The notes below the pieces were generated by a model. It had not been told where the DNA came from and ran no database searches. It saw only the letters and a program-made list of their open reading frames with translations. The translations under genes were made by a program, and so were the position numbers. From a virus, in IMG/VR virus record IMGVR_UViG_3300042882_000899, positions 32,001 through 96,000 of that record: 64,000 nt of DNA. The stretch is one strand, 5' to 3'. Shown piece by piece: positions 6,631-56,700 of the stretch; position 1 is the stretch's first letter; the number at the start of each line of letters is the position of its first letter.

Positions 6631-6632
6631 TT

Positions 6633-6854: not shown

Positions 6855-7023
6855 CATGGGTATACTAGACAACCTTGAAGCGGCTTTAGAGGCGGAAGAG
6901 GCAGAAAAGTGTCATTACTGCCAAGCTGTAGCTATATATAATGACCTTGCTGAAGTAGATAAGAACTATCAAATAGTAGGCGTATGTGCATGCCATTCAT
7001 TTAAAGGACTATCCTCCTAACTA

Positions 7024-20168: not shown

Positions 20169-20805
20169 TATTTATTCATCTCCTTAGCGATAGCCTCTGA
20201 CTTAGTTAGTGCCTCTAGGGCGATTGCTAGGGAGGCAAGGCGTTGCGCCTCTACCATTTGCTTGTATTCATCTAGGTTCATTTATGACCTTCTTTCGTTG
20301 TTGTTATTCTGTAATTGTAGCGTATGGGTCTGACAAATTGGGGAGGTTGGCTAGTGTGTCGGTGTGATACTAGTCACACTCTCCACATGGGCATTGAGGA
20401 AACTCTCGCTCTTGCTTTATGCGGTTAGCGAGTCGCTCTACCTTTAGGTATGTATCAGCGGAGGCACCTCGGAAAGATACTACCTTTCCTTCAGCGATAA
20501 GGTGAGCAGCCTTAGCAATCTTTTGCTCTAGTGTTAGTGAAGTCATTATTTAACTTCCTTTCTTTTTGTTATACCTTAAGCATAGCATGGGGGACTGACA
20601 AATTGACGCAAATCTCGGGCGTGTCGCAAAAAAACCTTTGTGATTAGCATCACACTCACGCTCAAGGCTCAAATAATTATGGGCGCACTATCCAAAATGT
20701 CCGTTTTGTCTAGGATGTGTATCATACATGTAAAAAATATATTAACATTTTTAGAAATCCTAAAAAGCAGTCGACTGGAATATAATGCGGTGGTACAATA
20801 GAAAC

Positions 20806-31885: not shown

Positions 31886-33463
31886 ATGGCAACAGTAAAT
31901 AAAAACTTTAGAATTAAAAATGGTCTTATCGTTGAGGGTGCTACCGCTACCGTTAACGGTTTTGGTGTATTAACCAAGGCTCAGGCAGACCAAGACTACA
32001 TTGTTGGTCTTATTGGTGGTACATCAACTTCAGCCAATACAGCAAATACTGTAGTAAAGCGTGACGCTAACGGAAACTTTGCCGCAGGAACAATTACTGC
32101 TACATTTGTTGGTAACCTTACTGGTGACGTAACAGGTACAGTTTCAAGTCTTTCAAACCACGATACAGGAGACCTTGCAGAAGGAACTAACCTTTACTTT
32201 ACAAATGATCGTGCAATAAGCGCAACAGCCGCATCATACGATGCAGCAGGCTCAGCAGCATCAGCTCAGTCAGCAGCAATTACTGCAGCAGCAACAGATG
32301 CAACTACTAAGGTAGCAGCAGAAGCAGCACTTAGAGTATCAGGCGACGCAGCTTCAGTATCAACCGCAGCAGCAGATGCAACATCTAAGGCAGATGCAGC
32401 CCAGGCAGCAGCAATCTCAGCAGCAGCAGCAGATGCAACATCTAAAGCAGATGCAGCCCAGGCAGCAGCAATCTCAGCAGCAGCAACAGACGCTACTACA
32501 AAGGCTAACGCAGCTCAGGCAGCAGCAATCTCAGCAGCAGCAACAGACGCTACTACAAAGGCTAACGCAGCACAAGCAGCAGCAATCTCAGCAGCAGCAG
32601 AAGCAGCTGGAACAGCAATTGCAACCGCAGTAGACGGTCTTGTTGACGGAGCACCAGCACTTCTTAATACATTAAATGAATTGGCAGCAGCAATTAATGA
32701 TGATGCTAATTACACAACAACTATTACAACAGCTCTAGGAACAAAAGCACCACTTGCTTCACCAGAACTTACTGGTGTACCTACAGCACCGACTGCAGCA
32801 GCAGATACTAATACAACTCAAATTGCTACAACAGCATTTGCTAAGGCAGAAGCAGACGCAGCTCAGGCAGCAGCAGAAGCAACTGCAGCATCAGATGCAA
32901 CTACTAAGGTAGCAGCAGAAGCAGCACTTAGAGTATTAGGCGACGCAGCTTCAGTATCAACCGCAGCAGCAGATGCAACATCTAAGGCAGATGCAGCTCA
33001 AGCAGCAGCAATATCAGCAGCAGCAACTGATGCCACTACAAAGGCTAACGCAGCTCAAGCAGCAGCAGAATCCACAGCGGCAGCAGCTAATACAGCTCAG
33101 CAAAATGGAACTACATCATTTACAGCAATTAATTACAACGATGTCGCTAAGCAAGTTGCGGCAACAACTGGAAATATTGCGGTAGCAGCAGAAACAACAG
33201 CTATCTCATGGGTGGCAGCAGATTACAGAAGCGCTAAGTTTGTAGTCAAGGTAAAAAATGGTGTACATACTCAGGTCTCAGACCTAGTAGTTACCCTTGA
33301 TACAGCTAACAACGTAGCAGTTTCTGAATATGGAATTACATATTCAAACGGAACAGAACTAGCTGCAGTAACAGCAGATTACTCTGGATCAGATGTAAGA
33401 ATTAGAGTAACTCCAGCAAACGCTAACACAGAAGTTGTCGTTGTTGGAACATTAATTAAATAA
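31886..33463 (+). CDS. tail fibre-like protein with Ala-rich repeats
   Basis: (AAQAAAISAAATDATTKA)n; APALLNTLNELAAA; PTAPTA....TQIATT. Confidence 0.75.
   Translation: MATVNKNFRIKNGLIVEGATATVNGFGVLTKAQADQDYIVGLIGGTSTSANTANTVVKRDANGNFAAGTITATFVGNLTGDVTGTVSSLSNHDTGDLAEGTNLYFTNDRAISATAASYDAAGSAASAQSAAITAAATDATTKVAAEAALRVSGDAASVSTAAADATSKADAAQAAAISAAAADATSKADAAQAAAISAAATDATTKANAAQAAAISAAATDATTKANAAQAAAISAAAEAAGTAIATAVDGLVDGAPALLNTLNELAAAINDDANYTTTITTALGTKAPLASPELTGVPTAPTAAADTNTTQIATTAFAKAEADAAQAAAEATAASDATTKVAAEAALRVLGDAASVSTAAADATSKADAAQAAAISAAATDATTKANAAQAAAESTAAAANTAQQNGTTSFTAINYNDVAKQVAATTGNIAVAAETTAISWVAADYRSAKFVVKVKNGVHTQVSDLVVTLDTANNVAVSEYGITYSNGTELAAVTADYSGSDVRIRVTPANANTEVVVVGTLIK
32265..33070 (+). 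repeat. tandem and dispersed coding repeats (57-bp unit; ~110-bp block duplicated at ~32295 and ~32893)
   Basis: Direct inspection. Confidence 0.8.
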
Positions 33464-33532
33464 TTAAATAAGAAGGTTATGGGGTTCCTTTTAAAAACCC
33501 CACCAAAACACTTAGGGGATATGTGAACTTAA

Positions 33533-33898
33533 ATGGCAACAGAGAATAAGAATTTTAAAGTAAAGAACGGACTCAATGTAGCAGGTACTGCCACATTTGA
33601 GTCTAACGTTGTTTTAGGAGAAACACCCCTTAGATTTGATACAACAACAAATAAGCTTCAAATTCAGCTAAATGGAACATGGGTTCCAATAGCTTTTAAT
33701 TCAGAAATTCCAGATCCATCCACTCAAATTGGGTTTATGGATATTGGCTTGGCTATAGACTATAATGGTCAGCCAATATATACGCTTCAAGCAAATGGAG
33801 TCAGCCCTGCTGGAACAAGCAAGTTTGTAGATGGCGGATCTCCAACATCAACAGATGCAGATATCTCAATAATATTTGATTCTGGAGTTATATCTTAA
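33533..33898 (+). CDS. virion accessory protein
   Basis: MAT.NKNF.VKNGL N-terminus shared with 31886. Confidence 0.65.
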   Translation: MATENKNFKVKNGLNVAGTATFESNVVLGETPLRFDTTTNKLQIQLNGTWVPIAFNSEIPDPSTQIGFMDIGLAIDYNGQPIYTLQANGVSPAGTSKFVDGGSPTSTDADISIIFDSGVIS

Positions 33899-33951
33899 AG
33901 CAATAAATGATACAATAAGCAGTATAAATAAAATATATAAGGGGTAATAAA

Positions 33952-36855
33952 ATGGCAACAGTAAGATTGCAGTTAAGAAGAGGCACAGCTTCACAATGGA
34001 CCTCAGCAAATCCAATTTTGGCAGCAGGAGAGCTTGGAGTTGAGTCAGATACTAACCTCTTTAAGTTTGGTAACGGTTCAACAACTTGGACAGCTCTAGC
34101 TTATGCAAATAACTCAGATGTAGCGATTGGTGAAATCTCCCAAGACGCAATTAATAATGCCCTATCTATGGGCGCAGGTCTTTCAAAGACGTATGATGAC
34201 GGCGCAAATACAATTACAATTACAGTAGATTCAACAATTGCAACAAAAACATACGCAGATGATGCTGTTACAGCACATCAAAATGATACAACATCTGTAC
34301 ACGGAATAACTAACACAGAAGATATTGTGTACTTGACAGGCGCTCAAACCCTTAGCGGAAAAACACTTTCTAACGTTGTATTGAGTGGAACACCTACAGC
34401 TCCTACTCAAGCTGCAAACGATAACTCTACTAAAATTGCAACAACAGAATATGTGCAAACAGAGCTTGCTGATCTTATAGGCACAGCCCCAGCTTTGCTA
34501 GATACACTTGGCGAATTGTCAGACGCACTTAACGATAATGAAAACTATGCAGCAGCAATGACATCAACAATCACAGGTATCAACAACAGCTTGGCAACTA
34601 AATTACCTACAACAGATTTTACCGCACACCTTACTGATACAACAGATGTCCATGGAATTTCAGACACAGCAAATCTAGTTTATACATCTGACTCAAGACT
34701 TTCAGATAACAGAACTCCAGTAAATGGATCTGTAGTAGCAGCATCAATGGCAACAGATTCAATAACAACACAAAGCATTACAGATGCCGCCGTAACAGGA
34801 CAAAAAATTGCAGACGATGCAGTAACTGCAGCTAAAATTGCTGCTTCAGCAGTTGGAACTTCAGAGATTGCAGACGATGCAGTAACTGCAGATAAGATTG
34901 CCACAGGGTCAGTTGGTTCTTCAGAGATTGCATCAAATGCTGTCGGTTCAGACCACATTGCAGCATCTGCAGTTGGAACTTCAGAGATTGCAGACGATGC
35001 AGTAACTGCAGATAAAATTGCTGCCTCAGCAGTTGGAACTTCAGAGATTGCAGATTATGCAGTAACTGCAACTAAGATTGCCACAGGGTCAGTTGGTTCT
35101 TCAGAGATTGCATCAAATGCTGTCGGTTCAGACCACATTGCAGCATCTGCAGTTGGAACTTCAGAGATTGCAGACCTAAATATTACAACAGCAAAGATTA
35201 ACGATTCAGCAGTTACAGAAGGCAAAATTGCAGGACTGGCAGTTACAGAAGGCAAAATTGCAGATGGCTCAGTATCTACTGTTAAAATTGCAGATTCTGC
35301 AGTAACTTCAGGGAAAATTGCAAACGGAACAATTGTTGATGCAGACATAAATGCAACAGCAGCAATTGCAATAACAAAAATTGACGGGCTTGGAACATCA
35401 CTTGATTCTAAGTTAGCTTCATCAACTGCAGCTTCAACATACGCTCCAATTGCTAGCCCAACATTTACTGGAACAGTTTCTGGTGTTACTAAATCTCACG
35501 TAGGTCTTGGAAATGTTGATAACACAGCAGATGCAGATAAGCCAGTTTCAACAGCTACACAAACTGCACTTGATCTAAAGTCACCACTTGCTTCACCAAC
35601 ATTTACGGGTACTGTAACAACAGGACATGTTCTACCAGCAACAGACATTACATTTGACTTAGGCTCCCCTACTAAAATGTGGAGAGATATTTATGTCGGA
35701 CCAGGATCCCTGTACGTTAACGGACAAAAAGTTCTTCAAACTGACGCAGGTGACGTTGTCATTACTGCCGACGCTAATGAAAACTTGGCATTAAGAACTA
35801 GCGGAAGTGGTAACATTGAACTAGATCCAACAGGTGCTGGTACTGTAAGTATAAAAGGACCAATGGTTATTGAGGCATCAGCTAACATAACAAGCGCAGA
35901 TGGCAACGGAATTAACTTTGGAAGCACAGTTAATGTTGATGCCATTACAAGCAAAACCTTAAATACAGACTTATCGCTATCAGGAAATGGTACAGGAAAA
36001 GTTTACCTTAATGATAACGCAGAAGTAAATGGAAACCTTGTTGTTGGTGGAAACCTAACAGTAAGCGGAACAACTACAACTGTTAACAGCGAAACAATTT
36101 CTTTAGCTGACAACATTATTGACTTAAACAGCAACTTTACTACTGGAACTCCAACAGAGAATGCAGGAATAAAAATTAAGCGTGGAGATTCTTCTGATGT
36201 TCAAATACGTTGGAATGAATCTACTGATAAGTGGGAGTTTACAAATGACGGAACAAACTATTATTCAGTAGCAGGTCTTGAATCACCAACATTTACAGGT
36301 ACTGTATCTGGTGTTACAAAGACAATGGTAGGTCTTGGAAATGTTGATAACACAGCAGACACAGCCAAGCCAGTTTCAACAGCTACACAAACTGCACTTG
36401 ATGCAAAACTTGCTTCTGCAACAGCAGCAACAACTTATGCGCCAATTGCTTCACCAACTTTTACTGGAACAGTAACAGTTGCTGCAGCAGGAGTGGCATT
36501 TACAGATAAGACACAGACAAAGGCTGGCGTACCATCACTTACAACAATTGGAACAACTGTTTCGTCAAACACTACACTTGATCTACTTGGAACAGACGCA
36601 GCAGTTCGGGATTCATTAATTCCACTGTCTGGTGCAGTAAATATTAACTTTGAAGCAACAGGAAATGCAAAGTATTCAATCGGCTCTTCAATAAGCTTCT
36701 ATCAGTCTTCAAGTACTGGTGCAAATATAACTGGAACTGGTGGAATAACAGTTCTTTCAACTCCAGGCGCAACATTAAGAGCACTAAATTCATCAGTAAC
36801 AGCAACAAAAATTGCAGCTACAACCTGGTTGTTAGCTGGAGACTTGAAGGCATAA
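33952..36855 (+). CDS. long tail fibre protein (MTD/hyaluronidase-like N-terminus)
   Basis: LRRGTASQW...NP.LA.GE.G.E.DT..FK.G.G...W; (AVT..KIA) repeats; VGLGNVDNT. Confidence 0.8.
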   Translation: MATVRLQLRRGTASQWTSANPILAAGELGVESDTNLFKFGNGSTTWTALAYANNSDVAIGEISQDAINNALSMGAGLSKTYDDGANTITITVDSTIATKTYADDAVTAHQNDTTSVHGITNTEDIVYLTGAQTLSGKTLSNVVLSGTPTAPTQAANDNSTKIATTEYVQTELADLIGTAPALLDTLGELSDALNDNENYAAAMTSTITGINNSLATKLPTTDFTAHLTDTTDVHGISDTANLVYTSDSRLSDNRTPVNGSVVAASMATDSITTQSITDAAVTGQKIADDAVTAAKIAASAVGTSEIADDAVTADKIATGSVGSSEIASNAVGSDHIAASAVGTSEIADDAVTADKIAASAVGTSEIADYAVTATKIATGSVGSSEIASNAVGSDHIAASAVGTSEIADLNITTAKINDSAVTEGKIAGLAVTEGKIADGSVSTVKIADSAVTSGKIANGTIVDADINATAAIAITKIDGLGTSLDSKLASSTAASTYAPIASPTFTGTVSGVTKSHVGLGNVDNTADADKPVSTATQTALDLKSPLASPTFTGTVTTGHVLPATDITFDLGSPTKMWRDIYVGPGSLYVNGQKVLQTDAGDVVITADANENLALRTSGSGNIELDPTGAGTVSIKGPMVIEASANITSADGNGINFGSTVNVDAITSKTLNTDLSLSGNGTGKVYLNDNAEVNGNLVVGGNLTVSGTTTTVNSETISLADNIIDLNSNFTTGTPTENAGIKIKRGDSSDVQIRWNESTDKWEFTNDGTNYYSVAGLESPTFTGTVSGVTKTMVGLGNVDNTADTAKPVSTATQTALDAKLASATAATTYAPIASPTFTGTVTVAAAGVAFTDKTQTKAGVPSLTTIGTTVSSNTTLDLLGTDAAVRDSLIPLSGAVNINFEATGNAKYSIGSSISFYQSSSTGANITGTGGITVLSTPGATLRALNSSVTATKIAATTWLLAGDLKA
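34805..35175 (+). repeat. 30/60/180-bp coding tandem repeats (SAVGTSEIAD/DAVTADKIA)
   Basis: Direct inspection. Confidence 0.85.
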
Positions 36856-36877: not shown

Positions 36878-37774
36878 ATGTCAAAAAATATAGGAAGAAG
36901 ATCTTCCGCACAAGATAACTTTATTGGACCAAATCCAGTAACAAATGTTACAGCATCAGACTACTTAAATGGAGCTAATAACCAAAGAGCTTTTAATGAT
37001 GGTGCAATTAGCGTTTCATGGTCAGCTCCAGTAGGAGGTAATACTCCTACTGGCTACAAGGTATATGAAGCTGGTGTTCTAAAAGCAACAGTCCCATTTG
37101 GAACAAACACAGCTTTGATAACTGGGTTAGGTTCAAATACATCTCACACATATTCAGTTTCATCTTATGACTCCTATTTAGACAATTCATCAAATGCAGT
37201 TGCGGCAAATGCAGCAACTGCTACAACAGTTCCAGGCACACCAGCCAACCCAACAGCAACAGCTGGTGTTGATTTAGACACAATTGCGTGGGTTGTTCCA
37301 GCAAATGGTGGAAAAGTCATTATCGATATTTATATTGAATCGAATGAGCCAACGCCAAAAAATAAAACTGTTACAACAGATGCCAATGGAAGCACAACTA
37401 TTGCAAATGAAGCAAATACAGCACAGGCCTACAAGGTAAGAGCAAGAAATGCTAACGGTTCAGGAGCCTTTTCAGGATTCTCTAATACTGTTACTACTCA
37501 AGCACCTTCATTCTTTAGCCCACCGTTCTTCCCACCTGGCTTCTTTAGCCCACCGTTCTTCCCACCTGGCTTCTTTAGCCCACCGTTCTTCCCACCTGGC
37601 TTCTTTAGCCCACCGTTCTTCCCACCAGTATTCTTTAGCCCACCATTCTTTCCACCTGGCTTCTTTAGCCCACCGTTCTTCCCACCTGGCTTCTTTAGCC
37701 CACCGTTCTTCCCACCTGGCTTCTTTAGCCCACCAGGATTTGGTGGCGGAGGCTGGAACTTGAGAGCTTACTAA
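36878..37774 (+). CDS. fibronectin type III protein with (FFSPPFFPPG)n tail
   Basis: Two FN3-like domains (W.AP..G....GY.V; Y.VRA.N..G.G..S) followed by Pro/Phe repeats. Confidence 0.8.
   Translation: MSKNIGRRSSAQDNFIGPNPVTNVTASDYLNGANNQRAFNDGAISVSWSAPVGGNTPTGYKVYEAGVLKATVPFGTNTALITGLGSNTSHTYSVSSYDSYLDNSSNAVAANAATATTVPGTPANPTATAGVDLDTIAWVVPANGGKVIIDIYIESNEPTPKNKTVTTDANGSTTIANEANTAQAYKVRARNANGSGAFSGFSNTVTTQAPSFFSPPFFPPGFFSPPFFPPGFFSPPFFPPGFFSPPFFPPVFFSPPFFPPGFFSPPFFPPGFFSPPFFPPGFFSPPGFGGGGWNLRAY
37511..37738 (+). repeat. 30-bp tandem repeat, 7 full copies plus 1 partial
   Basis: TTCTTTAGCCCACCGTTCTTCCCACCTGGC. Confidence 0.97.
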
Positions 37775-37804
37775 TATGAAAAAAACTATAAATGAGGTAT
37801 ATCT

Positions 37805-38209
37805 ATGAGTAAAAATTATGCAATCTTGTCTTTAGGTAAAGTTATTGATAAGATAGAAGTAGAAAACGTAGAAGAAGATGCAAATAGAGTAGACAGATTT
37901 TCTGAAATATTCAACTCTAATTTCTTCTGCAAGGATATAACTGATCACAAGAAAGTAAAGCTAAACTCAATATGGGATGGCCAAGCATTTTCTGAATCGG
38001 ATGAGGAAAGAAAAGAGGTTGCACCATATTCAGTAGCCTTTGTTTCTGACAATATAATCAAAGCAGTTGTTAGAGTGTATACAGCAAAAAGGTATAACCT
38101 CTATAAAGAAGCAGAGGTCAATGGGGTTTCTGCAATTGATGTTACCGACATGGATGTTACAGCTATAAAAACTGGAATGTCATGGGACGGTACCTCTTTT
38201 ACAGAATAG
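37805..38209 (+). CDS. hypothetical protein (duplicated WDG..F motif, fibre-assembly-like)
   Basis: ORF track. Confidence 0.65.
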   Translation: MSKNYAILSLGKVIDKIEVENVEEDANRVDRFSEIFNSNFFCKDITDHKKVKLNSIWDGQAFSESDEERKEVAPYSVAFVSDNIIKAVVRVYTAKRYNLYKEAEVNGVSAIDVTDMDVTAIKTGMSWDGTSFTE

Positions 38210-38221
38210 GAAGTCCTAACA

Positions 38222-38917
38222 TTGAGTAAAGATATTTTAAAGCATGAAATATCTCCTGGTCTATGGGTTTATAAAAATCAAATAGATAAAAGCATTATTG
38301 ATGACGTCGAAGGCTTTTTGTCTCAGTACGAAGAAGACTTTGAGTGGCGTGAAGCTACTGTTGGATATGATGTAAAAGTTCCTTCGTATAGAGACTGCGT
38401 AGATTTTAAAATACAAAAACATGAAATGCCAAATATGCCAAAAAGCAGAAAAGATCTAAATGATATTTGGCAAAAAGCATACGATATGCAAATTGATGCT
38501 GTTAAAGATTACTGCAAGGTTTACAATATTGACATGCAGTATTGGGAAGCCATGAACTTTATTAAGTATGGCGAAGGCCAGCATTTCCAAGAGCACTCAG
38601 ATCATGGATTCTCATACATAGCAACAGTTTCATTAGTGTCTTATCCAAATGATAACTACGAAGGCGGGGAGCTATATTTCCCTAAACTTAACTTAACAAT
38701 AACTCCAGAGGCTGGAGATATTGTTATATTCCCATCAACATATTTATTCTCACACAGAGCAATGCCAGTTAAATCAGGAGTCAAGTATTCAATCGTAACA
38801 ATGCTGGACTATAATGATAATACACATAACCAAGAGTTTGATATTCTTAGAATGAAAAGGACTAATTCTGCTTCTGCAAGAGAAAGTGCAAAAAGTGGAA
38901 ATAATAAAAGCCTATAA
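38222..38917 (+). CDS. prolyl-4-hydroxylase-like 2OG-Fe(II) oxygenase
   Basis: KY..GQ.F..HSD, Y.ND.YEGGE, FPS..L..H.A.PV.SG.KY. Confidence 0.9.
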   Translation: MSKDILKHEISPGLWVYKNQIDKSIIDDVEGFLSQYEEDFEWREATVGYDVKVPSYRDCVDFKIQKHEMPNMPKSRKDLNDIWQKAYDMQIDAVKDYCKVYNIDMQYWEAMNFIKYGEGQHFQEHSDHGFSYIATVSLVSYPNDNYEGGELYFPKLNLTITPEAGDIVIFPSTYLFSHRAMPVKSGVKYSIVTMLDYNDNTHNQEFDILRMKRTNSASARESAKSGNNKSL

Positions 38918-39611
38918 AACTAAAGAAGGATATTCTGAGCTAAACACACTGCCAGTAAAAAGAGACTGGATGGATGCAACTTGGCAAAAGCATGCCTACC
39001 ATTGTTTCCCAGTAACTTTAACAAATACAATGGGGTGGTACTTAAGTTTTCCAGAAGATATAACATTTATTTGGGACGGAGTTTCAAATTTTGATCCTTC
39101 TCATGTAAAGATATTATCTGGAGAAAAGTATGCGTATTCTGGTAGAGCAAATGGAACAATAAGCTTTAATACAGGCATAAAGTTTAAAACTGAAAAAGAT
39201 GTAACTCTATTAACTATGCCAGCACCTAATTTTTTTATTGATGGTGCTTCATGTTTTACAACATTAATTAGCACATCATTTTTTAGAGCTGACTTGCCAG
39301 TAGCATGGATGATTACTTCTCCTAATAAAAAAATTACTATTCCTGCAGGCCACCCCATATGCTCAATAATTCCAGTAAAATTAAATGATCTTAATAATTC
39401 TGAGATTAGAATTGAAAAAGAGCCAGAGGATGAAGTAGTTTCTCAAAAAGAGTTATACGAATATTCTATGGCAATTAATGAGATAAATAAAAAATTTAGT
39501 TGGTCTGATTTTTACAGAAATGGGATTGACCACAAAGGCAACGATCTTGGCCAACATGATGTAAAGTCTTTAAAGCTAAAAGTCATACAGGAATCTCCTG
39601 GTGATATTTAA
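38886..39611 (+). CDS. DUF6065-like protein
   Basis: RDWMD.....AY.CFP...N..GW. Confidence 0.7.
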   Translation: MQKVEIIKAYKTKEGYSELNTLPVKRDWMDATWQKHAYHCFPVTLTNTMGWYLSFPEDITFIWDGVSNFDPSHVKILSGEKYAYSGRANGTISFNTGIKFKTEKDVTLLTMPAPNFFIDGASCFTTLISTSFFRADLPVAWMITSPNKKITIPAGHPICSIIPVKLNDLNNSEIRIEKEPEDEVVSQKELYEYSMAINEINKKFSWSDFYRNGIDHKGNDLGQHDVKSLKLKVIQESPGDI

Positions 39612-39635
39612 TATGAAATATGGTATATTATAGAT

Positions 39636-40382
39636 ATGGAAATAGTTAATAAAGGAATTATGGGCGGAGGAAGAGCCCCTATATCAATAACGCCATCTGG
39701 ATTCTTTGGCGACTCAATTGATAATATTGTTGAGCTGGAAAATTTTATAACGGAAGAAGAGCAGCAGAGACTTATTAATTTTGCACTAACTAATAAAATC
39801 TGGGATAAAACTGAGACTCATGTCGATGAAGACGGTCTCGTCCTTTATGACGCAAATATTTGGGAAGATAGAGTTTGCACTGCAGACTCATTAAAAAGAT
39901 CTGACCCAGGAATAATTGATTTGTTATGGGATATGATTGATAGACTAAAAGTAGAAGTTGATAAATTTTTTGATGTTAATGTTCAAGCCACTGGGCCAGC
40001 AATTGTTAGGTGGCCAGTTGGAGCAAGACAAGAACCTCACGCAGACAAAGAGTTTCATACTGGAGAAGAAGAAGGAAGACCAAATGATTTTCCTTATTAT
40101 GACATAGCTGGACTATTTTATTTTGACGATAATTATGAAGGTGGAGAGCTATATTTTCCAAGACATGGTATTGAATTTAAGCCAAAGCCTAGGGCAGCTT
40201 ATTTTTTCCCAGGAGATAAATATTATGCTCATGGCGTTAGACCAGTAAAGTCTGGAAATAGATTCACTGCCCCATTTTTTTGGACGATTGTAAAGCATAC
40301 TGGAGAAAAACAACCTCCGCAAGATTATTCAGATCAGTTTAAGTCGCCATCATGGCAAAAGCTTTATGGAGATAGGGGTTAA
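39636..40382 (+). CDS. prolyl-4-hydroxylase-like 2OG-Fe(II) oxygenase
   Basis: HAD, YF.D.YEGGE, HGV.PV.SG.R. Confidence 0.9.
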   Translation: MEIVNKGIMGGGRAPISITPSGFFGDSIDNIVELENFITEEEQQRLINFALTNKIWDKTETHVDEDGLVLYDANIWEDRVCTADSLKRSDPGIIDLLWDMIDRLKVEVDKFFDVNVQATGPAIVRWPVGARQEPHADKEFHTGEEEGRPNDFPYYDIAGLFYFDDNYEGGELYFPRHGIEFKPKPRAAYFFPGDKYYAHGVRPVKSGNRFTAPFFWTIVKHTGEKQPPQDYSDQFKSPSWQKLYGDRG

Positions 40383-40385
40383 AAA

Positions 40386-41231
40386 ATGCATAGTTTAAAT
40401 ATAGTTGACGATATAGATTCTTTAGACTGGACAGAGTTGCTTCCAGGTGTAATACTTTATAGAGGAATGTTAAAGGATCCAGACCTCGCATATAATATAA
40501 TGATGCGCTCAGAATCTTCAGAAGAAAGTAATTTTTTTCAACAATGGACACCATGGGCTCAATACGGAACTTACACACAGGCTAAAGAACAGCCTATGAT
40601 TGAGTTAGCAGAAAAAAATGAAATTTTTAATGAAGAAAAAGCACTATATGAAGAAATTGCAAATTCTTACGATAAGGCAATATCGCATTATTTTAAACAT
40701 ACTGGAATTGAAATTCCAGAAGGCGCAAGGTATAGCGGACAGTCTTGGTGTAAGTATTTCAACTTGATTGACACATTAAAAAATAAAATGACAATGCAGT
40801 ATCATACTGATTTTATTATTTCTCAAAAAGATATGCCTGGGGAAAAATTCCATACAACCTGCACTTTTTATATTAATGACAACTATAATGGTGGCGATAT
40901 AGAGTTTTTTGTAGACGGTAAGTTTGTAAACCATAAACCATCTGCTGGAGACCTGCTAGTATTCCCATCAGGAGAACCTTTTTATCATGGGGTAAAAACA
41001 ATACCAGATGGCAATAAGTTCTTTATCAGAAACTTTGTAATGTTTGATTATGATGGCTCTAAAGAGTGGCTAGCAAATCAAAAGAGATATGGCGCATATA
41101 AGTGGGCAAAGCAAGAAATTGAAAGAATTGCAAATGACGATCCAAGAAATATGATCTATATAAGAGATAACGAAGTTATATCTTATGAAGAAATTATGGA
41201 CATAAAGATTGACGGGGGAATATACAATTGA
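40386..41231 (+). CDS. prolyl-4-hydroxylase-like 2OG-Fe(II) oxygenase
   Basis: HTD, YIND.Y.GG, HGV....G.K. Confidence 0.88.
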   Translation: MHSLNIVDDIDSLDWTELLPGVILYRGMLKDPDLAYNIMMRSESSEESNFFQQWTPWAQYGTYTQAKEQPMIELAEKNEIFNEEKALYEEIANSYDKAISHYFKHTGIEIPEGARYSGQSWCKYFNLIDTLKNKMTMQYHTDFIISQKDMPGEKFHTTCTFYINDNYNGGDIEFFVDGKFVNHKPSAGDLLVFPSGEPFYHGVKTIPDGNKFFIRNFVMFDYDGSKEWLANQKRYGAYKWAKQEIERIANDDPRNMIYIRDNEVISYEEIMDIKIDGGIYN

Positions 41232-42007
41232 ACCTAATTAAAGTTAGAGACAATGAGCACCCAGTATATTTATACGAAGAGTTTTTGACTAAAGAGGAGT
41301 GCGCTGGAATTATTAAGATGTTTAATAATCTTATAGCCAGCGGAGATTTTGAATGGCACCCAATCTCTTTTTATGAGTCATATGCTTATAACATGCCTAA
41401 CCAGTTAACAGATGACAAGAATAAGCTATCTCAATGGTATGCAGATGCTGGTCTGCCAGACAATTTCCTGGACGATCTAGAGGAAAAGTTTAAAAATGCA
41501 GCTCGTGAAATCATAGGGGGGGAAGCATATAAAATAAGTTTTCATAGTCAAAAATGGATACCTGGAGCTTATGCAGCTTTTCATTCAGATAACAGCTATG
41601 ACGGTAAGCCAAGCGCATTTGAAAGAAGTAGATACGCAGGATTCCTTTATTTAAACGATGACTTTGACGGCGGTGAGCTTAATTTTAAAAACTTTGATTT
41701 GAGCGTTAAGCCAAAAACAGGAATGTTTGCTATTTTTGATGGAGGTCATGAGAATACCCATGAGGTTACTCCAGTATTTAAAAGCGACAGATACACTGTC
41801 GGATCATTCTGGGATGATCGGTCAGAGGAAGATTACCCACAAGAAACTAGAGACAGATGGGCAGAAGAAATTGAAGAGACTAGAAAAAAGCAAAAAGTAG
41901 AGCAAGAAGAGTGGAAAGAAATACGAGATAGCGGAAAAAGAAGAACACCAGATGGCAGAGAATACGATGCAGTCTTAGCAGAAAGCGGAGAAGTCGATGG
42001 AGATTAA
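41228..42007 (+). CDS. prolyl-4-hydroxylase-like 2OG-Fe(II) oxygenase
   Basis: HSD, YLNDDFDGGE, HEV.PV...R. Confidence 0.9.
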   Translation: MNLIKVRDNEHPVYLYEEFLTKEECAGIIKMFNNLIASGDFEWHPISFYESYAYNMPNQLTDDKNKLSQWYADAGLPDNFLDDLEEKFKNAAREIIGGEAYKISFHSQKWIPGAYAAFHSDNSYDGKPSAFERSRYAGFLYLNDDFDGGELNFKNFDLSVKPKTGMFAIFDGGHENTHEVTPVFKSDRYTVGSFWDDRSEEDYPQETRDRWAEEIEETRKKQKVEQEEWKEIRDSGKRRTPDGREYDAVLAESGEVDGD

Positions 42008-42689
42008 AGAAGTTCAACCAAGATCAATGTACACAATGTTTGATATTGTTTACCACGATAGAGGGATTGTGTATTTTGAAAATGTTATTAGCTATCCTCA
42101 AAAGCTTTTAGATACGATTGAAGATCTTGATGCAAATCCAAAATCTCATGCTGGAATACCTAAATGGAATGCTTGGGGAGCAAGCAACGATGAAAAATAT
42201 GGTTATGGAATTCAAAAGTTTATAGACACATCAAAAAGGTATTTGAACTCGGATGACGATTTTCTAAACAAGCAAGTACTTTATGTTGTAAACAGCTTAA
42301 TTATGGCACCAGAAATGTGTGCAAAAAGATATGCCGAAATTATGCGTAGAGATGCATCTAATATTCAAAAGATAGACAGTACGCCAGAACAGGTTAAAAT
42401 GGGGCTAGACTATATTAAGGTAGCAAAGTACGATACAGGCAAGGGGATGGGGCCACACTGCGATGCAGAAGATCCATCTGGTACTGGCGAAAATCTGAAG
42501 TACTCCCTTGTTTGCTACCTTAATGATGACTACGAAGGTGGAGAAATTTACTTTAAAAACCAAGATATTAAGATTAAGCCAAAGGCTGGAAGCTTGGTAT
42601 TATTCCCTTCAGTTCACCCGTACCTACATGAATCTTTACCTGTTACAAAAGGTAACAAGATTATGTTTACGACTCACTGGATGGTTTAG
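41997..42689 (+). CDS. prolyl-4-hydroxylase-like 2OG-Fe(II) oxygenase
   Basis: HCD, YLNDDYEGGE, HES.PV..G.K. Confidence 0.9.
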   Translation: MEIKEVQPRSMYTMFDIVYHDRGIVYFENVISYPQKLLDTIEDLDANPKSHAGIPKWNAWGASNDEKYGYGIQKFIDTSKRYLNSDDDFLNKQVLYVVNSLIMAPEMCAKRYAEIMRRDASNIQKIDSTPEQVKMGLDYIKVAKYDTGKGMGPHCDAEDPSGTGENLKYSLVCYLNDDYEGGEIYFKNQDIKIKPKAGSLVLFPSVHPYLHESLPVTKGNKIMFTTHWMV

Positions 42690-42728: not shown

Positions 42729-44492
42729 ATGTCATATTACCTTTCTGCCATTAAAGACTTCCCAATAGGACTATGGAAGTTAGATGAATCATCTGGCTCA
42801 GTAGCCTATGATATTTCTGGGTGCGGAAATAATGGATTGTACGTCGGTCAAATATCTAAATCTGGCATGCCAATTGTATCTGGTGGCACACACTCTAATA
42901 AAATAGATAGTTTAAATTATGTGCAATTCAACCTGTCAAAAGATTTTTCTGGAACTATTGGCACAGGAGGATTTGCAACAGATTCAACATACGATAATGA
43001 CTTTACATTAGAAGCATGGATACACCCCAAAACATTAACTGCACTAACTCCAATACTGGCAGACTCTAGTGGCATAGGATTATATTGGGATAAAGGAAAT
43101 GCTGTATTTAAATTAGAAAATGAACGAATTGATTATTCAGTAATAAACCCAAACAGAGTTATTCACCTTGTTGGAATATATTCAGTTAACTCAATGAGCT
43201 TATATGTTGATGGCGCTTTGGTAGCATCCAAACCTGTATCTATTAAGTTTACAAATACTAGCGTAACATTATCTTCTGGGCCATGTGCATCTGGAGAGCA
43301 TTTTATAATTGATTGTCCAGCCGTATACAGATATTCGTTGTCGGAAAGATCAATCCTTTCGCATTATAATAATTTATTTCTTAATAATGACGAGCAAGTT
43401 TCTGTTCCAGAGTTAGGAGAATTATTTAGGGCGGGAGAAAGATATCAAAGCGTAGAAACAAAATATGTATACCCAGCTCAAGTTTCGTGGGACACTCTTA
43501 TATATGACAATGAAAATCTTTCTTACAACAAAAATAATAATAGTGTTTATTTAAATTCAGGATTTACATCTGGTGAATTTATTGAGGATATGGTTCTAAA
43601 TGTTACTAAAGACTACATGTCGTCAAAAATTGATTGGGTTTCTTCTAATGGCGTATCAATATATGTTTCTGAATCTTCAGAAAATGGACCATGGGTTTTG
43701 TGTACAAATGGATCTTCTATCCCAGGATTTACGCAAGGATCTGCTTTTTCTAATTCAAAAGTTTTATATTTTAAAGTTCTATTTCAGTCCACAAATTCAG
43801 ATGTATATATCCCAGAACTATACTCATTAAAAATTTATTTCTATTCTGAAAAAAAGATGTTTGCACATAATGGTGGTGGCTTTCTTGCAACATCACAACC
43901 TGCAACAGGATCTATATGGGACATTGACATAGCAAATGAACCTTATCAGGTCAGGCTAAGAAGTAGCACAAACGGAATAAGACCAAAATCCTCAGCTTTC
44001 TTTGTTAACTCTTTAAATGAAAATCGTAATATCGAAATGATATTTACTCCAAAATCTCTATCCAGTGGTCACCTAATGTTTAATAAAACGGGATCAGTTG
44101 AGACGGCATTATCTTGGGCGGCAGGCGGAGCAATAGCAAAATCTAACATTAGCAATATATATATTAATGGCCAAGATGCCTCATCCGCTACCAACATATC
44201 ATCATATTTATATATAGATGAGCCTAACTATATATTAATAAAAACCTCTAGTGCTATTAGTGGAGAAATTTGGTTTAATGGCAAGCAGCTTCTAGGAGTA
44301 AGATCAGGCGTATTGGATGATAATTTATACCAAAACTTAGCCTTGTACACAAATCCATCAATTAGTCACCAGGAGCATTATGACTTATATATTGGCAAAC
44401 CTGCTTCTATTGCTGAAGGATCGTCGATGGCAATGACAGAAGAGTCCGTATCCACATATTCTAGAGACAGAGTAGTGCTTCAAATCATATAG
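42729..44492 (+). CDS. LamG/concanavalin A-like virion protein
   Basis: P.G.W.LDE.SG..A.D.SG, FTLEAWI, HLVG.Y, LYVDG. Confidence 0.8.
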   Translation: MSYYLSAIKDFPIGLWKLDESSGSVAYDISGCGNNGLYVGQISKSGMPIVSGGTHSNKIDSLNYVQFNLSKDFSGTIGTGGFATDSTYDNDFTLEAWIHPKTLTALTPILADSSGIGLYWDKGNAVFKLENERIDYSVINPNRVIHLVGIYSVNSMSLYVDGALVASKPVSIKFTNTSVTLSSGPCASGEHFIIDCPAVYRYSLSERSILSHYNNLFLNNDEQVSVPELGELFRAGERYQSVETKYVYPAQVSWDTLIYDNENLSYNKNNNSVYLNSGFTSGEFIEDMVLNVTKDYMSSKIDWVSSNGVSIYVSESSENGPWVLCTNGSSIPGFTQGSAFSNSKVLYFKVLFQSTNSDVYIPELYSLKIYFYSEKKMFAHNGGGFLATSQPATGSIWDIDIANEPYQVRLRSSTNGIRPKSSAFFVNSLNENRNIEMIFTPKSLSSGHLMFNKTGSVETALSWAAGGAIAKSNISNIYINGQDASSATNISSYLYIDEPNYILIKTSSAISGEIWFNGKQLLGVRSGVLDDNLYQNLALYTNPSISHQEHYDLYIGKPASIAEGSSMAMTEESVSTYSRDRVVLQII

Positions 44493-44555
44493 TTTTGTCA
44501 GACTGAGTGACAAAAAGCTGGACTTGTAGACACAAAGATGGTAAAATAATTAACT

Positions 44556-44900
44556 ATGGACATAAAAAGAATTAATGCTCAAATGAAATCTGGCGATACC
44601 AGGTTAGGAGTCTATGTCTGGGAGATGCCAGATGGAAGATGGGTCGGAGACGAAGACAACAACTTCCTATCAATAGCATCAATGATTGGTAATAAAGAAA
44701 GAATTGCTCTGTTAGCATCAGCAGTTGCTCACTATGGAATTGATGTCGGCCAGCCTAAGTTTATTGAAGGAAGCAGGCAGATTGACGATGAAGAATTTGA
44801 ATATCAAAAGCAAAGACTTAGATGGGGACTCACTCCAGATCCTTTGGATATAAGTGTTCACAAAGAAGAAATGGCTAAACTGAATGGTGGTAAAAAATGA
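44556..44900 (+). CDS. conserved-looking protein upstream of portal
   Basis: ORF track; leaderless after TAAAAT. Confidence 0.75.
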   Translation: MDIKRINAQMKSGDTRLGVYVWEMPDGRWVGDEDNNFLSIASMIGNKERIALLASAVAHYGIDVGQPKFIEGSRQIDDEEFEYQKQRLRWGLTPDPLDISVHKEEMAKLNGGKK

Positions 44901-46477
44901 TTGAGTACGATGAAGACACTGTTATGAATAACATAGAGGTTTCTAACGTGGCAGACTGGATGAGATTTAACAATCCAACTACTCAGAAATCAGATGACGC
45001 ATTTGATGTAGAGGGCGAAGACATTTTAAAGCTTTCTGGTCTAGGTGCCTCATTTAGAAGAAAAGTTTCCAGAGATCTTCAGAAATCTTTTGTAGGAAAA
45101 GATGGAGCAGTAAGCCAGCAGCTTCAGCATCAGCAAGCAGTTAGTGGCTATGCCACATTTGATCTAATTCAACCAGAATATAATTTAGATTATTTATCAA
45201 CAATTTACGAAATTTCTCCATACAACTATGCTGCTATAAATGCAAAGGTGGCAAACATTGTTGGCCTAGGATTTGATTTTGTTGAATCAAGAAAAACGAC
45301 TGATGCACTTGATGAAATTAGTGATGAGAAGCAATTAGAAAGAGCCCGAAAGAAGTTAAATAGAATTAAACAAGATTTAAACAAGTGGCTTGAAGATTGC
45401 AATGAAGACGAAACTTTTAAAGAAACACTTATAAAGTTCTACACTGATATAGAGGCTACTGGTAATGGCTACCTAGAGGTCGGTAGAACGACAACTGGCA
45501 AGATAGGATACATCGGACACATCCCTTCAAAGACAATGCGTGTAAGGCGCCTTAGAGACGGTTTTATCCAGCTTCTTTATGGCAAGGCTGTTTTCTTTAG
45601 AAACTTCGGGGACACAGAAACAGTAAACCCTATAGCAGGTCAAGAAGATAGGCCTAATGAAATTATTCATTTAAAAAAGTACACGCCAAAGAATAATTAT
45701 TATGGAATTCCAGATATTATTGCTGCCCAGAATGCTATGGCTGGTAACGAGTTTGCTGGCAAGTACAACCTGGACTACTTTGAAAACAAGGCAGTGCCTA
45801 GATACATTATTACGGTAAAGGGAGCAAAACTTTCTCCAGAATCTGAAAGAAAGCTGCTTGAGTTTTTCCAGGTGGGACTAAAGGGAAAAAACCACAGATC
45901 TCTGTATATACCACTTCCACCAGACTCACCAGACTCAAAGACTGAGTTTAAGATGGAGCCAATTGAGGCTGGCTCACAAGAGTCTTCATTTAACATTTAT
46001 CGTCAATCAAATAGAGACGAAATTCTAATGGCACATAGAGTTCCAATTAATAAAATTGGCACACCAGCAGGCATTAATTTGGCTGCAGCCAGAGACGCAG
46101 ATAAGACATTTAAAGAGCAGGTATGTCGTCCAGCTCAGGAAAACCTAGAAAAGAAATTAAATAAAATAATTCAAGAAATGACTGATGCCATGGAGCTTAA
46201 GTTTAATGAATTAAGCTTGACAGATGCAGACACTCAGTCTAAGATAGATGAAAGATATCTTAGATTCCAGGTAATTACTCCAAATGAAATTAGAGTAAGA
46301 ATGGGAATGGTTCCACGAGAAGGTGGGGATGTCCCAGTAGACCTTGCAGCACAGGCAGCCGAAATTAAGGCTCAGGCTACTCAAAGTAGAACCCGTGACC
46401 AAGAAAGATCAGCAAATTCCCCAGATAAATCTGGGGAGGGCAGAAATGCAAAGGGAGATGGAAGACAAGTCAACTAG
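44897..46477 (+). CDS. portal protein (PBSX/HK97-like)
   Basis: D.EATGNGYLE, EIIH.K, YYG.PD, YF.N.A.P, I..AH.VP, TPNE.R; gene order. Confidence 0.92.
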   Translation: MIEYDEDTVMNNIEVSNVADWMRFNNPTTQKSDDAFDVEGEDILKLSGLGASFRRKVSRDLQKSFVGKDGAVSQQLQHQQAVSGYATFDLIQPEYNLDYLSTIYEISPYNYAAINAKVANIVGLGFDFVESRKTTDALDEISDEKQLERARKKLNRIKQDLNKWLEDCNEDETFKETLIKFYTDIEATGNGYLEVGRTTTGKIGYIGHIPSKTMRVRRLRDGFIQLLYGKAVFFRNFGDTETVNPIAGQEDRPNEIIHLKKYTPKNNYYGIPDIIAAQNAMAGNEFAGKYNLDYFENKAVPRYIITVKGAKLSPESERKLLEFFQVGLKGKNHRSLYIPLPPDSPDSKTEFKMEPIEAGSQESSFNIYRQSNRDEILMAHRVPINKIGTPAGINLAAARDADKTFKEQVCRPAQENLEKKLNKIIQEMTDAMELKFNELSLTDADTQSKIDERYLRFQVITPNEIRVRMGMVPREGGDVPVDLAAQAAEIKAQATQSRTRDQERSANSPDKSGEGRNAKGDGRQVN

Positions 46478-53429: not shown

Positions 53430-53767
53430 ATTTAGCCGCTTTAGAGGGACAAGTTTTTCTTTTAGGACATTGGAAGAATTACGAAGATTTAGAAGAAAAT
53501 TTATCAATGCCAGAATTGATTCAGACCCTAACAGCGATGAATCAAAAAGAACATAACCAGAGAAAGTTTGCAGCATCACTAAAAGGAATCCAATTAGATG
53601 ATGATGCAGAAGAAGAAAAAGAAAAAGGTTCTACCTTTGAAGATATCCAAAGAAGAGCTCTTGGGATTAAAGCATCAGCAGATGATGTTGTTAGTTTACA
53701 AGGACCCTTCGCAGCACAAGCTGGATTTGGAATTGGCGCAGGGTTAGGATACTCTAGGAGTAATTAG
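53387..53767 (+). CDS. tail assembly chaperone -1 frameshift extension (GT-like)
   Basis: C CCA AAC at 53387-53393; the -1 frame is open from there to 53767. Confidence 0.8.
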   Translation, partial: PKPNSGSGTGWSELDLAALEGQVFLLGHWKNYEDLEENLSMPELIQTLTAMNQKEHNQRKFAASLKGIQLDDDAEEEKEKGSTFEDIQRRALGIKASADDVVSLQGPFAAQAGFGIGAGLGYSRSN

Positions 53768-56700
53768 TGGCTGACGAACAAATTGTAACCTCCATAGTCG
53801 CCAAAGCCGACTTGTCTAGCCTTGTGTCTGAAGTACACAGGGCTAGTGCTAGTCTTCAGCAACTCCAAAGAGAATTACTTGCTTCCAACAAGGCAATTTC
53901 TTCTTCAACAAAATTAGCAAACAATTTATTTAGAGACACACTAACTGGAAGCGGACAATTCTCCAGCCACTTTGTAAACCTTAATTCAGATGTTGATAAG
54001 TTCGGTAAGAATTTAGATGCAGGCAGATTAAAGCTTAAAAACTATTTCCAAACTTTTAGAGAGCATGCTACTACTCAAAAGGGAATGATCAGAGAACTTG
54101 CCAAAGAGCAAGTTATGCTTCAAAACTCAGTCCTGCAACCTTTAGGCAGAAATGCTCAAGGTTTAATGCAGTACAACGTCATGATCCCAAGAGGATTAGA
54201 TGCTGTAAAGAATAGCGCACAGCTAGCTCGTATGGAACTGCAAATAATGAATCGTGCACTATCTGAAGGAGCAGGATCTTTAATTAACTGGGGTAAGAAT
54301 ACTCAGTGGGCAGGTCGTCAGCTTACAGTTGGTCTTACAGTACCATTAACAATGTTTGGTGCCGCAGCTTCAAAAGCTTTTAGAGAAGCAGACCAAGAGC
54401 TCGTAAGACTTACAAAGGTTTATGGTGGACTAGCAGCAACATCTGCAACAGATTTAAAAGCAATTAGAGAAGAAGTTATTCAGACAGCAAAGTCTTTATC
54501 TCAAACAATGGGTGCTTCTTTTAAAGATACAATTGCTTTAGGTGCAGATATTGCAGCAACTGGAAAGATGGGTAACGAGCTGCTTGGCTCAATAGAAGAA
54601 ACAACAAGACTATCTATTCTTGGTGAAGTAGACAGACAAGATGCAATGAAGGCTACACTTTCAATTCAAACAGCATTTAAGCAGAACACAGAACAACTTA
54701 CAGAATCAATTAACTTCCTTAACGCAGTTGAAAACCAGACATCTACAACTCTTAACGATTTAGTAGAAGCTATTCCAAAAGCTGGTCCAGTTATACAGCA
54801 ACTAGGCGGAAGCATTGAAGACCTAGCTCTCTATATGACAGCAATGAGAGAGGGTGGTATTAATGCATCTGAAGGAGCAAACGCATTAAAGTCAGGACTT
54901 GCTTCTTTAATTAACCCAACAAAGCAAACAGTTGGAATCATGTCAGACTTCGGTATAGATGTAATGGGAATGGTTGCCAAAAATACTGGAAACACAACTG
55001 GCATGTTGATGGATCTACAAACTGCTCTTAATAAGCTAGACCCATTGAGTAAAGCAAGAGCGCTAGAGCAAATGTTTGGAAAGTTCCAGTTTGCAAGAAT
55101 GAGCGCACTGCTCAATAACCTTGGAAAAGAAGGAAGCCAGACGCTTCAGGTTATGGATTTAATGAAAGCAAGTACTTCAGATTTGGCTGGTATTGCAGAG
55201 CGAGAATTAGGAATGATTACAGAATCTGCATCTGGTAAATACAGAAAGGCTATGGAAAGCCTAAAGGCAGAGCTAGCAAGCGTAGGAGAAGAGTTCCTCG
55301 GTATAGGAACTAAGATTCTAAATGCAGCATCAAAGATTCTGAATTTCTTTACTGAGTTGCCAACACCAATTAAAAAAGCTCTTACATTTATGGCAGGATT
55401 CACAGCATTAGTTGGTCCACTTATTATGTTAACTGGTGTGCTTGCAAACTTCTTCGGCTATATAACAAAGGGAATAGTCCAGCTTAGATCTTTCTTTATG
55501 AGAGCAAACGGATGGAAAATGCTCACCCCAGAAATTATTGCTGCTCAAAAAGCAGCAGAGATGGTTGAGAATGCGTTCTATTCAGATGCAGCAGCAGCTC
55601 AAGTTTTACACAACGCATTACAAAAGCTTGTTTTAGATTATCAAAACCTGCAAGCAGCTTCAATGAAAAATGCAGTTCCTGTAAACCCAGGAGTTAGCAC
55701 AGTTGATGGAAATGCAGTTGTTGCAGCTGGAAGAAGATTCGTAGACCCTAACGATCCGTATGTAGGAGATCCTAATACTAGAGCAATGTCTCACATTAGA
55801 CCAAGAGATATAAATAACCCAGCAACTATATTTGGCGGGGTACCAGGAGCTATTCCAGTTAATAGAGGAATATCAAGAACTCCACAAATGTACATGCATG
55901 ATAGACTTCCAAATATTGAAGGTCTAACAAGCGTTAAGGGGATATCCACAGGAATTGTTCCAGGAGAAGCAGCTAAGTTCCACGCATTAATGGCAACACT
56001 TGGAATGCAAACTGAGCAAGAAGTTGCTACATTAAAGAAGACTATTGCTATGGGCGGAACAGTAAGTAGAGAGCTATTAGATACATTTGATGACATACTT
56101 CCTATAACTCAAAGATTTGCAAATAGCGCAGCAGAGCAATCTGCATTAATTGTGCAACAAATGAGAAATGCTGAAATTACTGTAGACCAAGCAAAGGCAA
56201 GAATACTTGCACTAAATGCACAGATAGAAGCAGAAATGGGATCTGCTGTAAGTGCATATGCAGTAGGCAGAGGACGTACATTAGATTTAACAAAAGCTCC
56301 AATGATGAATCAACCAGTTGTTGATGCAAATGGACAATTTACATTAAGAGATTTATATAAGAAAGAATCCAACAGGGCAGTCATGGAAGAGTTTGGAAGA
56401 GTTCGTGGAGTAAGAACATTTGGAGCTCCTTACAGCATTCAGACAACAAGAATGCCTAAGTTCAATGATGGTGGAGGAGTTGAGTCCTTTGGTCCAGGAA
56501 AGACAATGGTATCTGGACCATCTTCAATTAACTATGACGACAGGCTTGGTAGCGTTCCAATCGGAGGTTATGTACTAAATCAGTCTGCTTCAATGGACCC
56601 AGCGAATGCCCCACTCGTTGAAATGGCTGCAGCTACATATGAAGACGGCGGAAAGATAACAGCAGCACTTACTCCACGGGAAGTAGTGTTTGGTCCTAAG

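Follow-up and report, generated by a model that had tools for sequence, protein, structure and literature searches.

Prolyl-hydroxylase-like oxygenases and a DUF6065 protein encoded beside a fibre-region protein with a Phe/Pro repeat: a candidate appendage-hydroxylation cassette in an uncultured phage

Introduction

A viral precedent for the hydroxylation of proline repeats is provided by the chlorovirus PBCV-1, whose prolyl 4-hydroxylase (P4H) modifies (Pro-Ala-Pro-Lys)n sequences (PMC3634087). Genes of 2-oxoglutarate (2OG)-Fe(II) oxygenases are numerous in the genomes of phages, especially of those from aquatic habitats, and their targets have been left unassigned since the genes were catalogued: 14 of 16 genomes of T4-like cyanophages contain several of them, and roles in DNA repair or at the level of 2OG have been proposed, with no substrate gene named (PMC3037559). 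Here, we analyze a window of 64,000 nucleotides, i.e. bases 32001-96000 of the 114,960-bp IMG/VR record IMGVR_UViG_3300042882_000899 (completeness estimate 96%), where five P4H-like oxygenase genes, which we refer to as ox1 to ox5, and a gene of the DUF6065 family follow the gene of a fibre-region protein with fibronectin type III (FN3) domains and a C-terminal Phe/Pro repeat. We propose, with our confidence and our doubt about evenly balanced, that this cassette hydroxylates proline residues in the (FFxPP)n tail of the FN3 protein and that the DUF6065 protein acts as a partner of the enzymes. Positions are those of the window, unless they are stated to be those of the genome or of another locus.

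Among known systems, the P4H of PBCV-1 (PDB ID:5c5t) comes closest to the locus described here, in that both a P4H-type enzyme of monomer size and Pro-rich repeat proteins are encoded by the virus; the two systems differ in that PBCV-1 infects eukaryotic algae and has a single enzyme, while the present virus is a bacteriophage with five P4H-like paralogues in one operon, accompanied by DUF6065, and in that the repeat is PAPK in the former and Phe-Phe-x-Pro-Pro in the latter, where it is encoded upstream of the enzymes. The oxygenase sets of the cyanophages share the multi-paralogue pattern, but here a candidate substrate adjoins the enzymes and covaries with them. The P4H of Bacillus anthracis (PDB ID:3itq, 5hv0), a collagen-type P4H of the bacterial cytoplasm, resembles ox1 and indicates that bacterial cells can support this chemistry. 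It is the product of a single cellular gene and acts on collagen-like Gly-X-Y peptides; unlike the phage ox genes, it is neither viral nor located in a cassette.

Prolyl hydroxylation is also the first tailoring step in the hydroxyproline glycosylation of Skp1, where the P4H PhyA is followed by Gnt1, and in the hydroxyproline-rich glycoproteins of plants. The idea that is shared with these systems is the hydroxylation of proline on a structural or adaptor protein; the phage repeat is not of the SPPPP kind, and our library scans, confined to the ORFs (open reading frames) of the block, have given no match to a glycosyltransferase. Lastly, the autoprocessing domains of the Hint type, i.e. the bacterial intein-like (BIL) and the Hedgehog-type domains, are comparable with a C-terminal domain that occurs in relatives of the FN3 protein, where self-cleavage is predicted. 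In the literature that we searched, we have found no description of this cassette or of DUF6065.

Results

Covariation of the repeat type and the cassette

The relatives in the IMG/VR database number at least 83 for the FN3 protein and at least 167 for the DUF6065 protein. The relatives of the FN3 protein carry either the FFxPP repeat (PP-type) or, in a minority, a proline-poor (FGFTP/FGAFGFTP)n repeat (FG-type). The co-occurrence of the repeat with the cassette was counted over the distinct FN3-repeat proteins that are followed by at least 7 kb of downstream sequence: among the 69 PP-type proteins, ox1, DUF6065 and ox2 are present in every case, ox3 in 60, ox4 in 66 and ox5 in 65, while among the seven FG-type proteins, ox1, DUF6065, ox3 and ox4 are found in none, an ox2-like gene in three and an ox5-like gene in five. 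The gene-neighbourhood comparison that had been suggested in the initial annotation of this locus has thus given a positive answer (69/69 against 0/7 for both ox1 and DUF6065). The reverse search, starting from DUF6065, finds an FFxPP ORF upstream wherever the sequence suffices. The order of the genes is also conserved: two fibre genes (525 and 967 amino acids), separated by a gene for 121 amino acids, are followed by the FN3 gene, ox1, DUF6065, ox2, ox3, ox4 and ox5, then by a gene for a fibre with an S74 chaperone (given in brackets in our scheme), and by the genes of a LamG-domain protein, a 114-amino-acid protein and the portal.

When the FN3 domains of 86 proteins are arranged in a tree, the rows of the FG-type fall among those of the PP-type, and the repeat type and the cassette change three times each, at the same rows, with no discordant row. 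The number of matches to PF13640 in the whole record follows the same division: four near-complete genomes of the PP-type have 11, 11, 12 and 10 of them, while a complete genome of the FG-type has 5 and another FG-type genome, which is 65% complete, has none. An additional pattern, which is suggestive only, is seen in the phages that have no bare FFPP units, since they tend to carry an extra DUF6065-like gene (38/20/3/3; five independent pairs, p ~0.125).

The megablast search with the block and the tblastn searches with the FN3 and DUF6065 proteins have found no match in 50,697 GenBank phage records, so that uncultured viruses are the only known carriers of the system; the close relatives at the DNA level derive from lake metagenomes.

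The oxygenases ox1 to ox5

All five oxygenases pass the gathering score of the Pfam family PF13640 (2OG-FeII_Oxy_3), with 30.1-56.3 bits against 27, and all five contain the iron-binding triad HxD...H, followed by a lysine or arginine ten positions after its second histidine (H+10). On the plus strand, ox1 is located at 38222..38917 (231 amino acids; H125, D127, H178, K188; PF13640 E 1.6e-13), ox2 at 39636..40382 (248 amino acids; H135, D137, H199, R209; E 9.8e-7), ox3 at 40386..41231 (281 amino acids; H140, D142, H201, K211; E 2.1e-7), ox4 at 41228..42007 (259 amino acids; H119, D121, H178, R188; E 1e-9) and ox5 at 41997..42689 (230 amino acids; H154, D156, H211, K221; E 6.7e-15). The H+10 residue (K188, R209, K211, R188 and K221, respectively) would, as judged by its position, bind the C5 carboxylate of 2-oxoglutarate. 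In the alignments of ox1, ox3 and ox5 (34-35 sequences each, 28-77% identical to the window sequence), the HxD...H triad is invariant.

The comparison of the profiles of ox1, ox3 and ox5 with the PDB points to peptidyl-prolyl hydroxylases, which act on Pro-rich repeats, as their closest solved relatives: ox1 matches the P4H of B. anthracis (E 5e-8), ox5 the P4H of PBCV-1 (5c5t, E 5.5e-10) and ox3 the prolyl 3-hydroxylase 1, P3H1 (E 4e-4), while the Chlamydomonas P4H, PHD2 and the lysyl hydroxylase LH3 are also matched by these profiles. These matches to solved P4Hs suggest a double-stranded beta-helix fold, and the homology with the prolyl 4- and 3-hydroxylases and with the lysyl hydroxylase suggests the hydroxylation of peptidyl-proline as a candidate activity of ox1 to ox5. 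The five proteins are mutual paralogues (hhalign probability 97-99.9%), and for ox1, ox2, ox4 and ox5, the best-matching PHROG is number 61.

Across the whole genome, there are 11 matches to PF13640, and a profile built locally from the oxygenases finds 14 oxygenase-like ORFs. Among those located away from the block, a protein of 432 amino acids at 2038-3336 is a fusion of a domain like the Asp/Asn beta-hydroxylases (AspH; PF05118, E 5.8e-17) with a P4H-like domain (PF13640, E 6.6e-10), and a convergent, overlapping pair of oxygenase-like ORFs is composed of one at 23188-23970 on the plus strand, which passes PF13640, and one at 23948-24784 on the minus strand, which matches the local profile only. 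Outside the window, at genome bases 3741-6893 (L224), there is a tandem trio of PF13640 oxygenases of 337-362 amino acids, which are closest to ox3.

The DUF6065 protein

The presence of a DUF6065-like gene in the block, as initially annotated, is confirmed by the match to PF19541 (E 4.4e-32; score 111.9 bits, gathering score 26.6); the gene is located at 38886..39611 on the plus strand and encodes 241 amino acids. Since its profile gave nothing significant against the PDB sequences (the best match was the dUTPase Wsv112, E 0.12), a fold search was needed: the AlphaFold2 (AF2) model, with a pLDDT of 92, resembles the trimeric dUTPases and dCTP deaminases, with a Foldseek E-value of 4e-4 and VIA-align Z scores that reach 10.5, and the top 22 VIA-align rows are all dUTPases, dCTP deaminases or herpesvirus dUTPase-related proteins.

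The link between DUF6065 and the oxygenases is found in gene fusions. Among the 1480 relatives that the DUF6065 profile recovers from 1.84 billion representative proteins, three of the longer ones are fused to a PF13640 domain, and one, from an Allosphingosinicella metagenome-assembled genome (MAG), is fused to a hydroxylase of the Cupin_8/JmjC type. The oxygenase half of the PF13640 fusions scores best against the profile of ox2, with ox4 as a close second, and the order within the fusion, DUF6065 followed by the oxygenase, is the order of the window genes DUF6065 and ox2. One JGI member of this fusion cluster is named as a Tpa1-like ribosomal prolyl hydroxylase. Because DUF6065 is fused to P4H-like and JmjC oxygenases elsewhere, we take it to be a putative oxygenase partner. 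One further relative is fused to a sulfotransferase of the Stf0 type; in the pair P0124 and P0098, DUF6065 is joined to the Stf0-type sulfotransferase or to an integrase arm-binding domain, and the latter arrangement may be an artefact of gene calling.

The scan of genome contigs for DUF6065 has given only seven contigs, all from lake-metagenome MAGs that are binned to unrelated phyla; they are probably mis-binned phage DNA and are therefore uninformative on the host.

The FN3 protein and its Phe/Pro repeat

The FN3 protein (298 amino acids, 36878..37774, plus strand) is the candidate substrate of the cassette, and its architecture is FN3-FN3-(FFSPPFFPPG)7.5, as read from Pfam and from its relatives. 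The fn3 match in the window protein itself is marginal (E 1.7e-5, 25.4 bits against the cut-off of 25), while its relatives have two fn3 stretches with E-values down to 7e-13 - 1e-13. The Phe/Pro tract, with a repeat of 75 residues, is encoded by a 30-bp tandem repeat in 7.5 copies at 37511..37734 on the plus strand, the sole array that is reported by Tandem Repeats Finder (period 30, 94% matches). The composition of residues 212-288 is 31 Phe, 30 Pro, 8 Ser, 7 Gly and 1 Val, and the protein then ends with the sequence GGGGWNLRAY; the ORF listing, Pfam and Tandem Repeats Finder thus agree with the initial annotation of an FN3 protein that ends in about 7.5 Pro/Phe decapeptides and this terminal segment.

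The tract is 40% Pro, and Pro-Pro-Gly is present; Lys, Asp and Asn are absent, so that proline would be the canonical target, if the tract is a substrate. The motif F-F-x-P-P is preserved through synonymous codon changes at every position, as seen in 878 units from 84 genes. In two near-identical phages (L015:1120-1863 and L016:1146-2069), there are 5 and 17 FF units, respectively, and thus the length of the tract changes fast. With one Gly per ten residues, FFSPPFFPPG is not a collagen-like (Gly-X-Y)n sequence, and the term "extensin-like" is to be understood as an analogy. A search of 5.8 billion proteins with the repeat only has yielded 23 matches, all of them unnamed metagenome proteins, 15 with a precomputed fn3 domain; no cellular counterpart of the repeat occurs among them.

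A second proline-rich protein of the genome, and another possible target of a hydroxylase, is located outside the window (genome bases 19319-21403, L225:1319-3403): this protein of 694 amino acids contains a PA14 domain and (PEPTDEPT)n PT repeats.

The Hint domain and the portable C-terminal module

The full sequences of the relatives show that the majority architecture is FN3-FN3-(FFxPP)n, followed by a C-terminal domain of about 160 amino acids. This domain opens with a Cys (or Ser) right behind the repeat, e.g. ...PPRFG|CINEDT, and often ends with ...VVHN; since its profile matches the bacterial intein-like domain 2lwy (E 4.5e-8) and mini-inteins, we assign it to the Hint superfamily (examples are L062:2759-4111, L022:10001-11281 and L017:3044-4534). 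The Hint domain is present in 41 of the 69 PP-type relatives, and the remaining 28, with the window protein among them, have a short form without it, which ends about 10 residues past the repeat, usually with R-x-Y. On the FN3-domain tree, the presence of the Hint domain switches at least 12 times. No extein is found behind the Hint domain in the relatives, and the domain could therefore only cut itself off, by N-terminal cleavage. The window protein has no Hint domain and stops about 10-12 residues past the last repeat unit, as the short-form relatives do, and because of this it looks like the directly encoded equivalent of a Hint-trimmed product.

In the relatives, the same C-terminal module, i.e. 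the repeat followed by the Hint domain or by the short R-x-Y tail, is also carried by other proteins of the fibre region, with lengths of 285-892 amino acids (examples are L198:1237-3708, L189:2295-4679, L195:1009-3687, L168:169-1026 and L169:496-2250); the window genome has a single module-bearing protein. By eye, some of these proteins have Cys-rich WSxWS segments, of the thrombospondin-type-1-like kind, or a PASTA-like N-terminus. The repeat type always agrees between the FN3 protein and the second module-bearing protein of the same phage. We have considered this concordance as extra support for the covariation and discounted it, because the C-terminal modules look copied, by duplication or gene conversion (both Hint domains of L055 begin identically).

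Some of the neighbouring genes are associated with one of the two forms. The gene u134 (134 amino acids, 37805..38209, plus strand), which is located between the FN3 gene and ox1, occurs in 5 of the 28 short forms, which are close relatives, and in none of the 41 Hint forms; it has no match in Pfam, PHROG or NCBIfam, and its AF2 model (pLDDT 92.5) has an internal beta-beta-alpha-beta duplication and no fold match in the PDB. The genes U4 (AspH-like), U5 and U6 occur at the same place, between the FN3 gene and ox1, in 9-12 of the 41 Hint forms and in none of the 28 short forms (e.g. L062:4112-5369 and L017:4552-5653), and they may be linked to the processing of the Hint domain. The hhalign comparison has given no link between the U3-U6 families of the relatives and the oxygenases.

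Genomic context of the block

The block is located between fibre-like genes and the genes of the LamG protein, the portal, the protease and the capsid. The fibre-like genes (525, 121 and 967 amino acids; 31886..36855, plus strand; PHROG tail-fibre matches and synteny) are always located 5' of the FN3 gene in the relatives, and the genes of the LamG-domain protein (42729-44492, Pfam Laminin_G_3), the 114-amino-acid protein and the portal (44897-46477, PHROG), which together span 42729..46477 on the plus strand, always come after the cassette. The block genes are on the same strand as the structural genes and are spaced by 3-39 bp or overlap. The five HxD...H oxygenases are, as had been described, inside the structural module; their placement directly downstream of the FN3 gene has to be corrected, as u134 intervenes. 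The consensus scans have found no convincing plus-strand terminator between the block genes, and the number of promoter-like sites (70, with 57.8 +/- 8.5 expected) is uninformative.

The genome carries a head module of the HK97 type. The protease of the window is 43-45% identical to proteases of Streptomyces phages, and a gene of the WhiB family is located outside the window (genome bases 23939-24112, L223, E 1.3e-12); an actinobacterial host is therefore indicated. In the tail module, an ORF of 2801 amino acids (53767-62172) is presumably the tape measure.

Discussion

The arrangement that we have described is consistent with a module for the tailoring of proteins, expressed late by a siphovirus of freshwater Actinobacteria. 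In this reading, the FN3 protein would be an appendage of the fibre region, with its C-terminal (FFxPP)n tract serving as the substrate, and the five paralogous P4H-type dioxygenases, with the dUTPase-fold DUF6065 protein as their partner, would act inside the infected cell and hydroxylate the prolines of the tract either before the virion is assembled or in the course of its assembly. A stalk of the polyproline-II-like kind would be stiffened by hydroxyproline, which would also add polarity to a Phe/Pro segment that is otherwise very hydrophobic. The Hint domain of most relatives would cut itself off at X|Cys, and the window protein would correspond to the trimmed product.

A dedicated system for the hydroxylation of the repeat, as the initial annotation had proposed, is favoured by the co-occurrence and by the kinship with peptidyl-prolyl hydroxylases, but several observations weigh against it. 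Since the repeat is encoded at the 3' end of the gene that adjoins the cassette, one recombination could replace both, and the transitions on the tree amount to 2-3 independent events, with a sign test that is not significant; the covariation is therefore suggestive and not proof. At least eight further P4H-like genes of the genome have no adjoining Pro repeat, and the oxygenase family must therefore have other targets too. The equivalent slot in relatives holds unrelated genes of class II ribonucleotide reductase (RNR), short-chain dehydrogenase/reductase (SDR) and AspH-like proteins, which means that the region is plastic. Five paralogues seem more than a two-context repeat needs, the ox2-like (3/7) and ox5-like (5/7) genes persist in the FG-type phages, and the proposal does not account for a dUTPase-fold protein in the hydroxylation of proteins.

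Several of the same observations bear on a competing explanation, which we regard as possible but doubtful: the oxygenases would act on other proteins, either of the host (translation factors, ribosomal proteins) or of the virion (fibres, LamG), and their adjacency to the repeat would be inherited. This is compatible with the distribution of the PF13640 ORFs (at least 12 in the genome) over five places, mostly with no Pro repeat near, with the plasticity of the slot and with the small number of independent transitions, and also with the cyanomyoviruses, which have many 2OG-Fe(II) oxygenases of unassigned role as well (PMC3037559). Enzymes of the P4H family, both bacterial and eukaryotic, hydroxylate translation factors or ribosomal proteins, and the Tpa1-like name within the DUF6065-oxygenase fusion cluster points in the same direction. 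What targets elsewhere leave unexplained is that the phages with a proline-poor repeat are precisely those that lack ox1, DUF6065, ox3 and ox4, that the oxygenase count of the whole genome drops in the FG-type phages, and that the order of the cassette beside the same gene is kept over 28-77% protein identity. The fold of DUF6065 (Z 10.5 to dUTPases and dCTP deaminases), together with the SDR and class II RNR genes in the equivalent region of some relatives, would suit a pathway of small molecules or nucleotides, e.g. the modification of a base or a metabolite, in which DUF6065 binds a nucleotide and the oxygenases act on a free substrate. We consider such a pathway improbable: DUF6065 is fused to PF13640 and JmjC/Cupin_8 domains and not to nucleotide enzymes, and fusions to domains of the protein-hydroxylase type argue against it; the sequence profile gives no significant dUTPase; and the matches of the oxygenases are to peptidyl-prolyl and lysyl hydroxylases rather than to TET/JBP or AlkB. 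Least credible of all, in our estimation, is the scheme of a ribosomally synthesized and post-translationally modified peptide (RiPP), which had also been raised for this locus, with the repeat as a core peptide that is modified and then released as free peptides. A repetitive, core-like tract does adjoin tailoring enzymes here, but neither a leader peptide nor a protease, cyclase or exporter is present in the block, the repeat is carried by a folded protein of 298 amino acids with two FN3 domains and a strongly conserved N-terminus, the same C-terminal module rides on fibre-type proteins of 285-892 amino acids in the relatives, and the Hint domain of the relatives would cut only after the repeat, trimming the C-terminus rather than freeing peptides; the claim of released peptides is not borne out.

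Returning to the hydroxylation of the appendage, the locus names a concrete candidate substrate that can be tested at low cost, i.e. the Phe/Pro tail of about 90 residues that is encoded two genes 5' of the first enzyme. DUF6065 can be named as the candidate partner, since gene fusions back its connection with oxygenases. If the hydroxylation of the tail is true, prolyl hydroxylation would be a means by which phages, like a chlorovirus, chemically modify appendages of their own, and DUF6065 would gain a role. In a broader proposal, which we put forward tentatively and with some more doubt than confidence, freshwater actinophages would build a hydroxyproline-rich Phe/Pro virion appendage with their own prolyl hydroxylases and a dUTPase-fold adaptor, and the repeat with its removable Hint cap would be a portable tag that marks several fibre proteins for this tailoring. 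In that case, no structural protein of a bacteriophage would have been known before to be hydroxylated by enzymes, and the large orphan family of phage 2OG-Fe(II) oxygenases would have its first assigned substrate.

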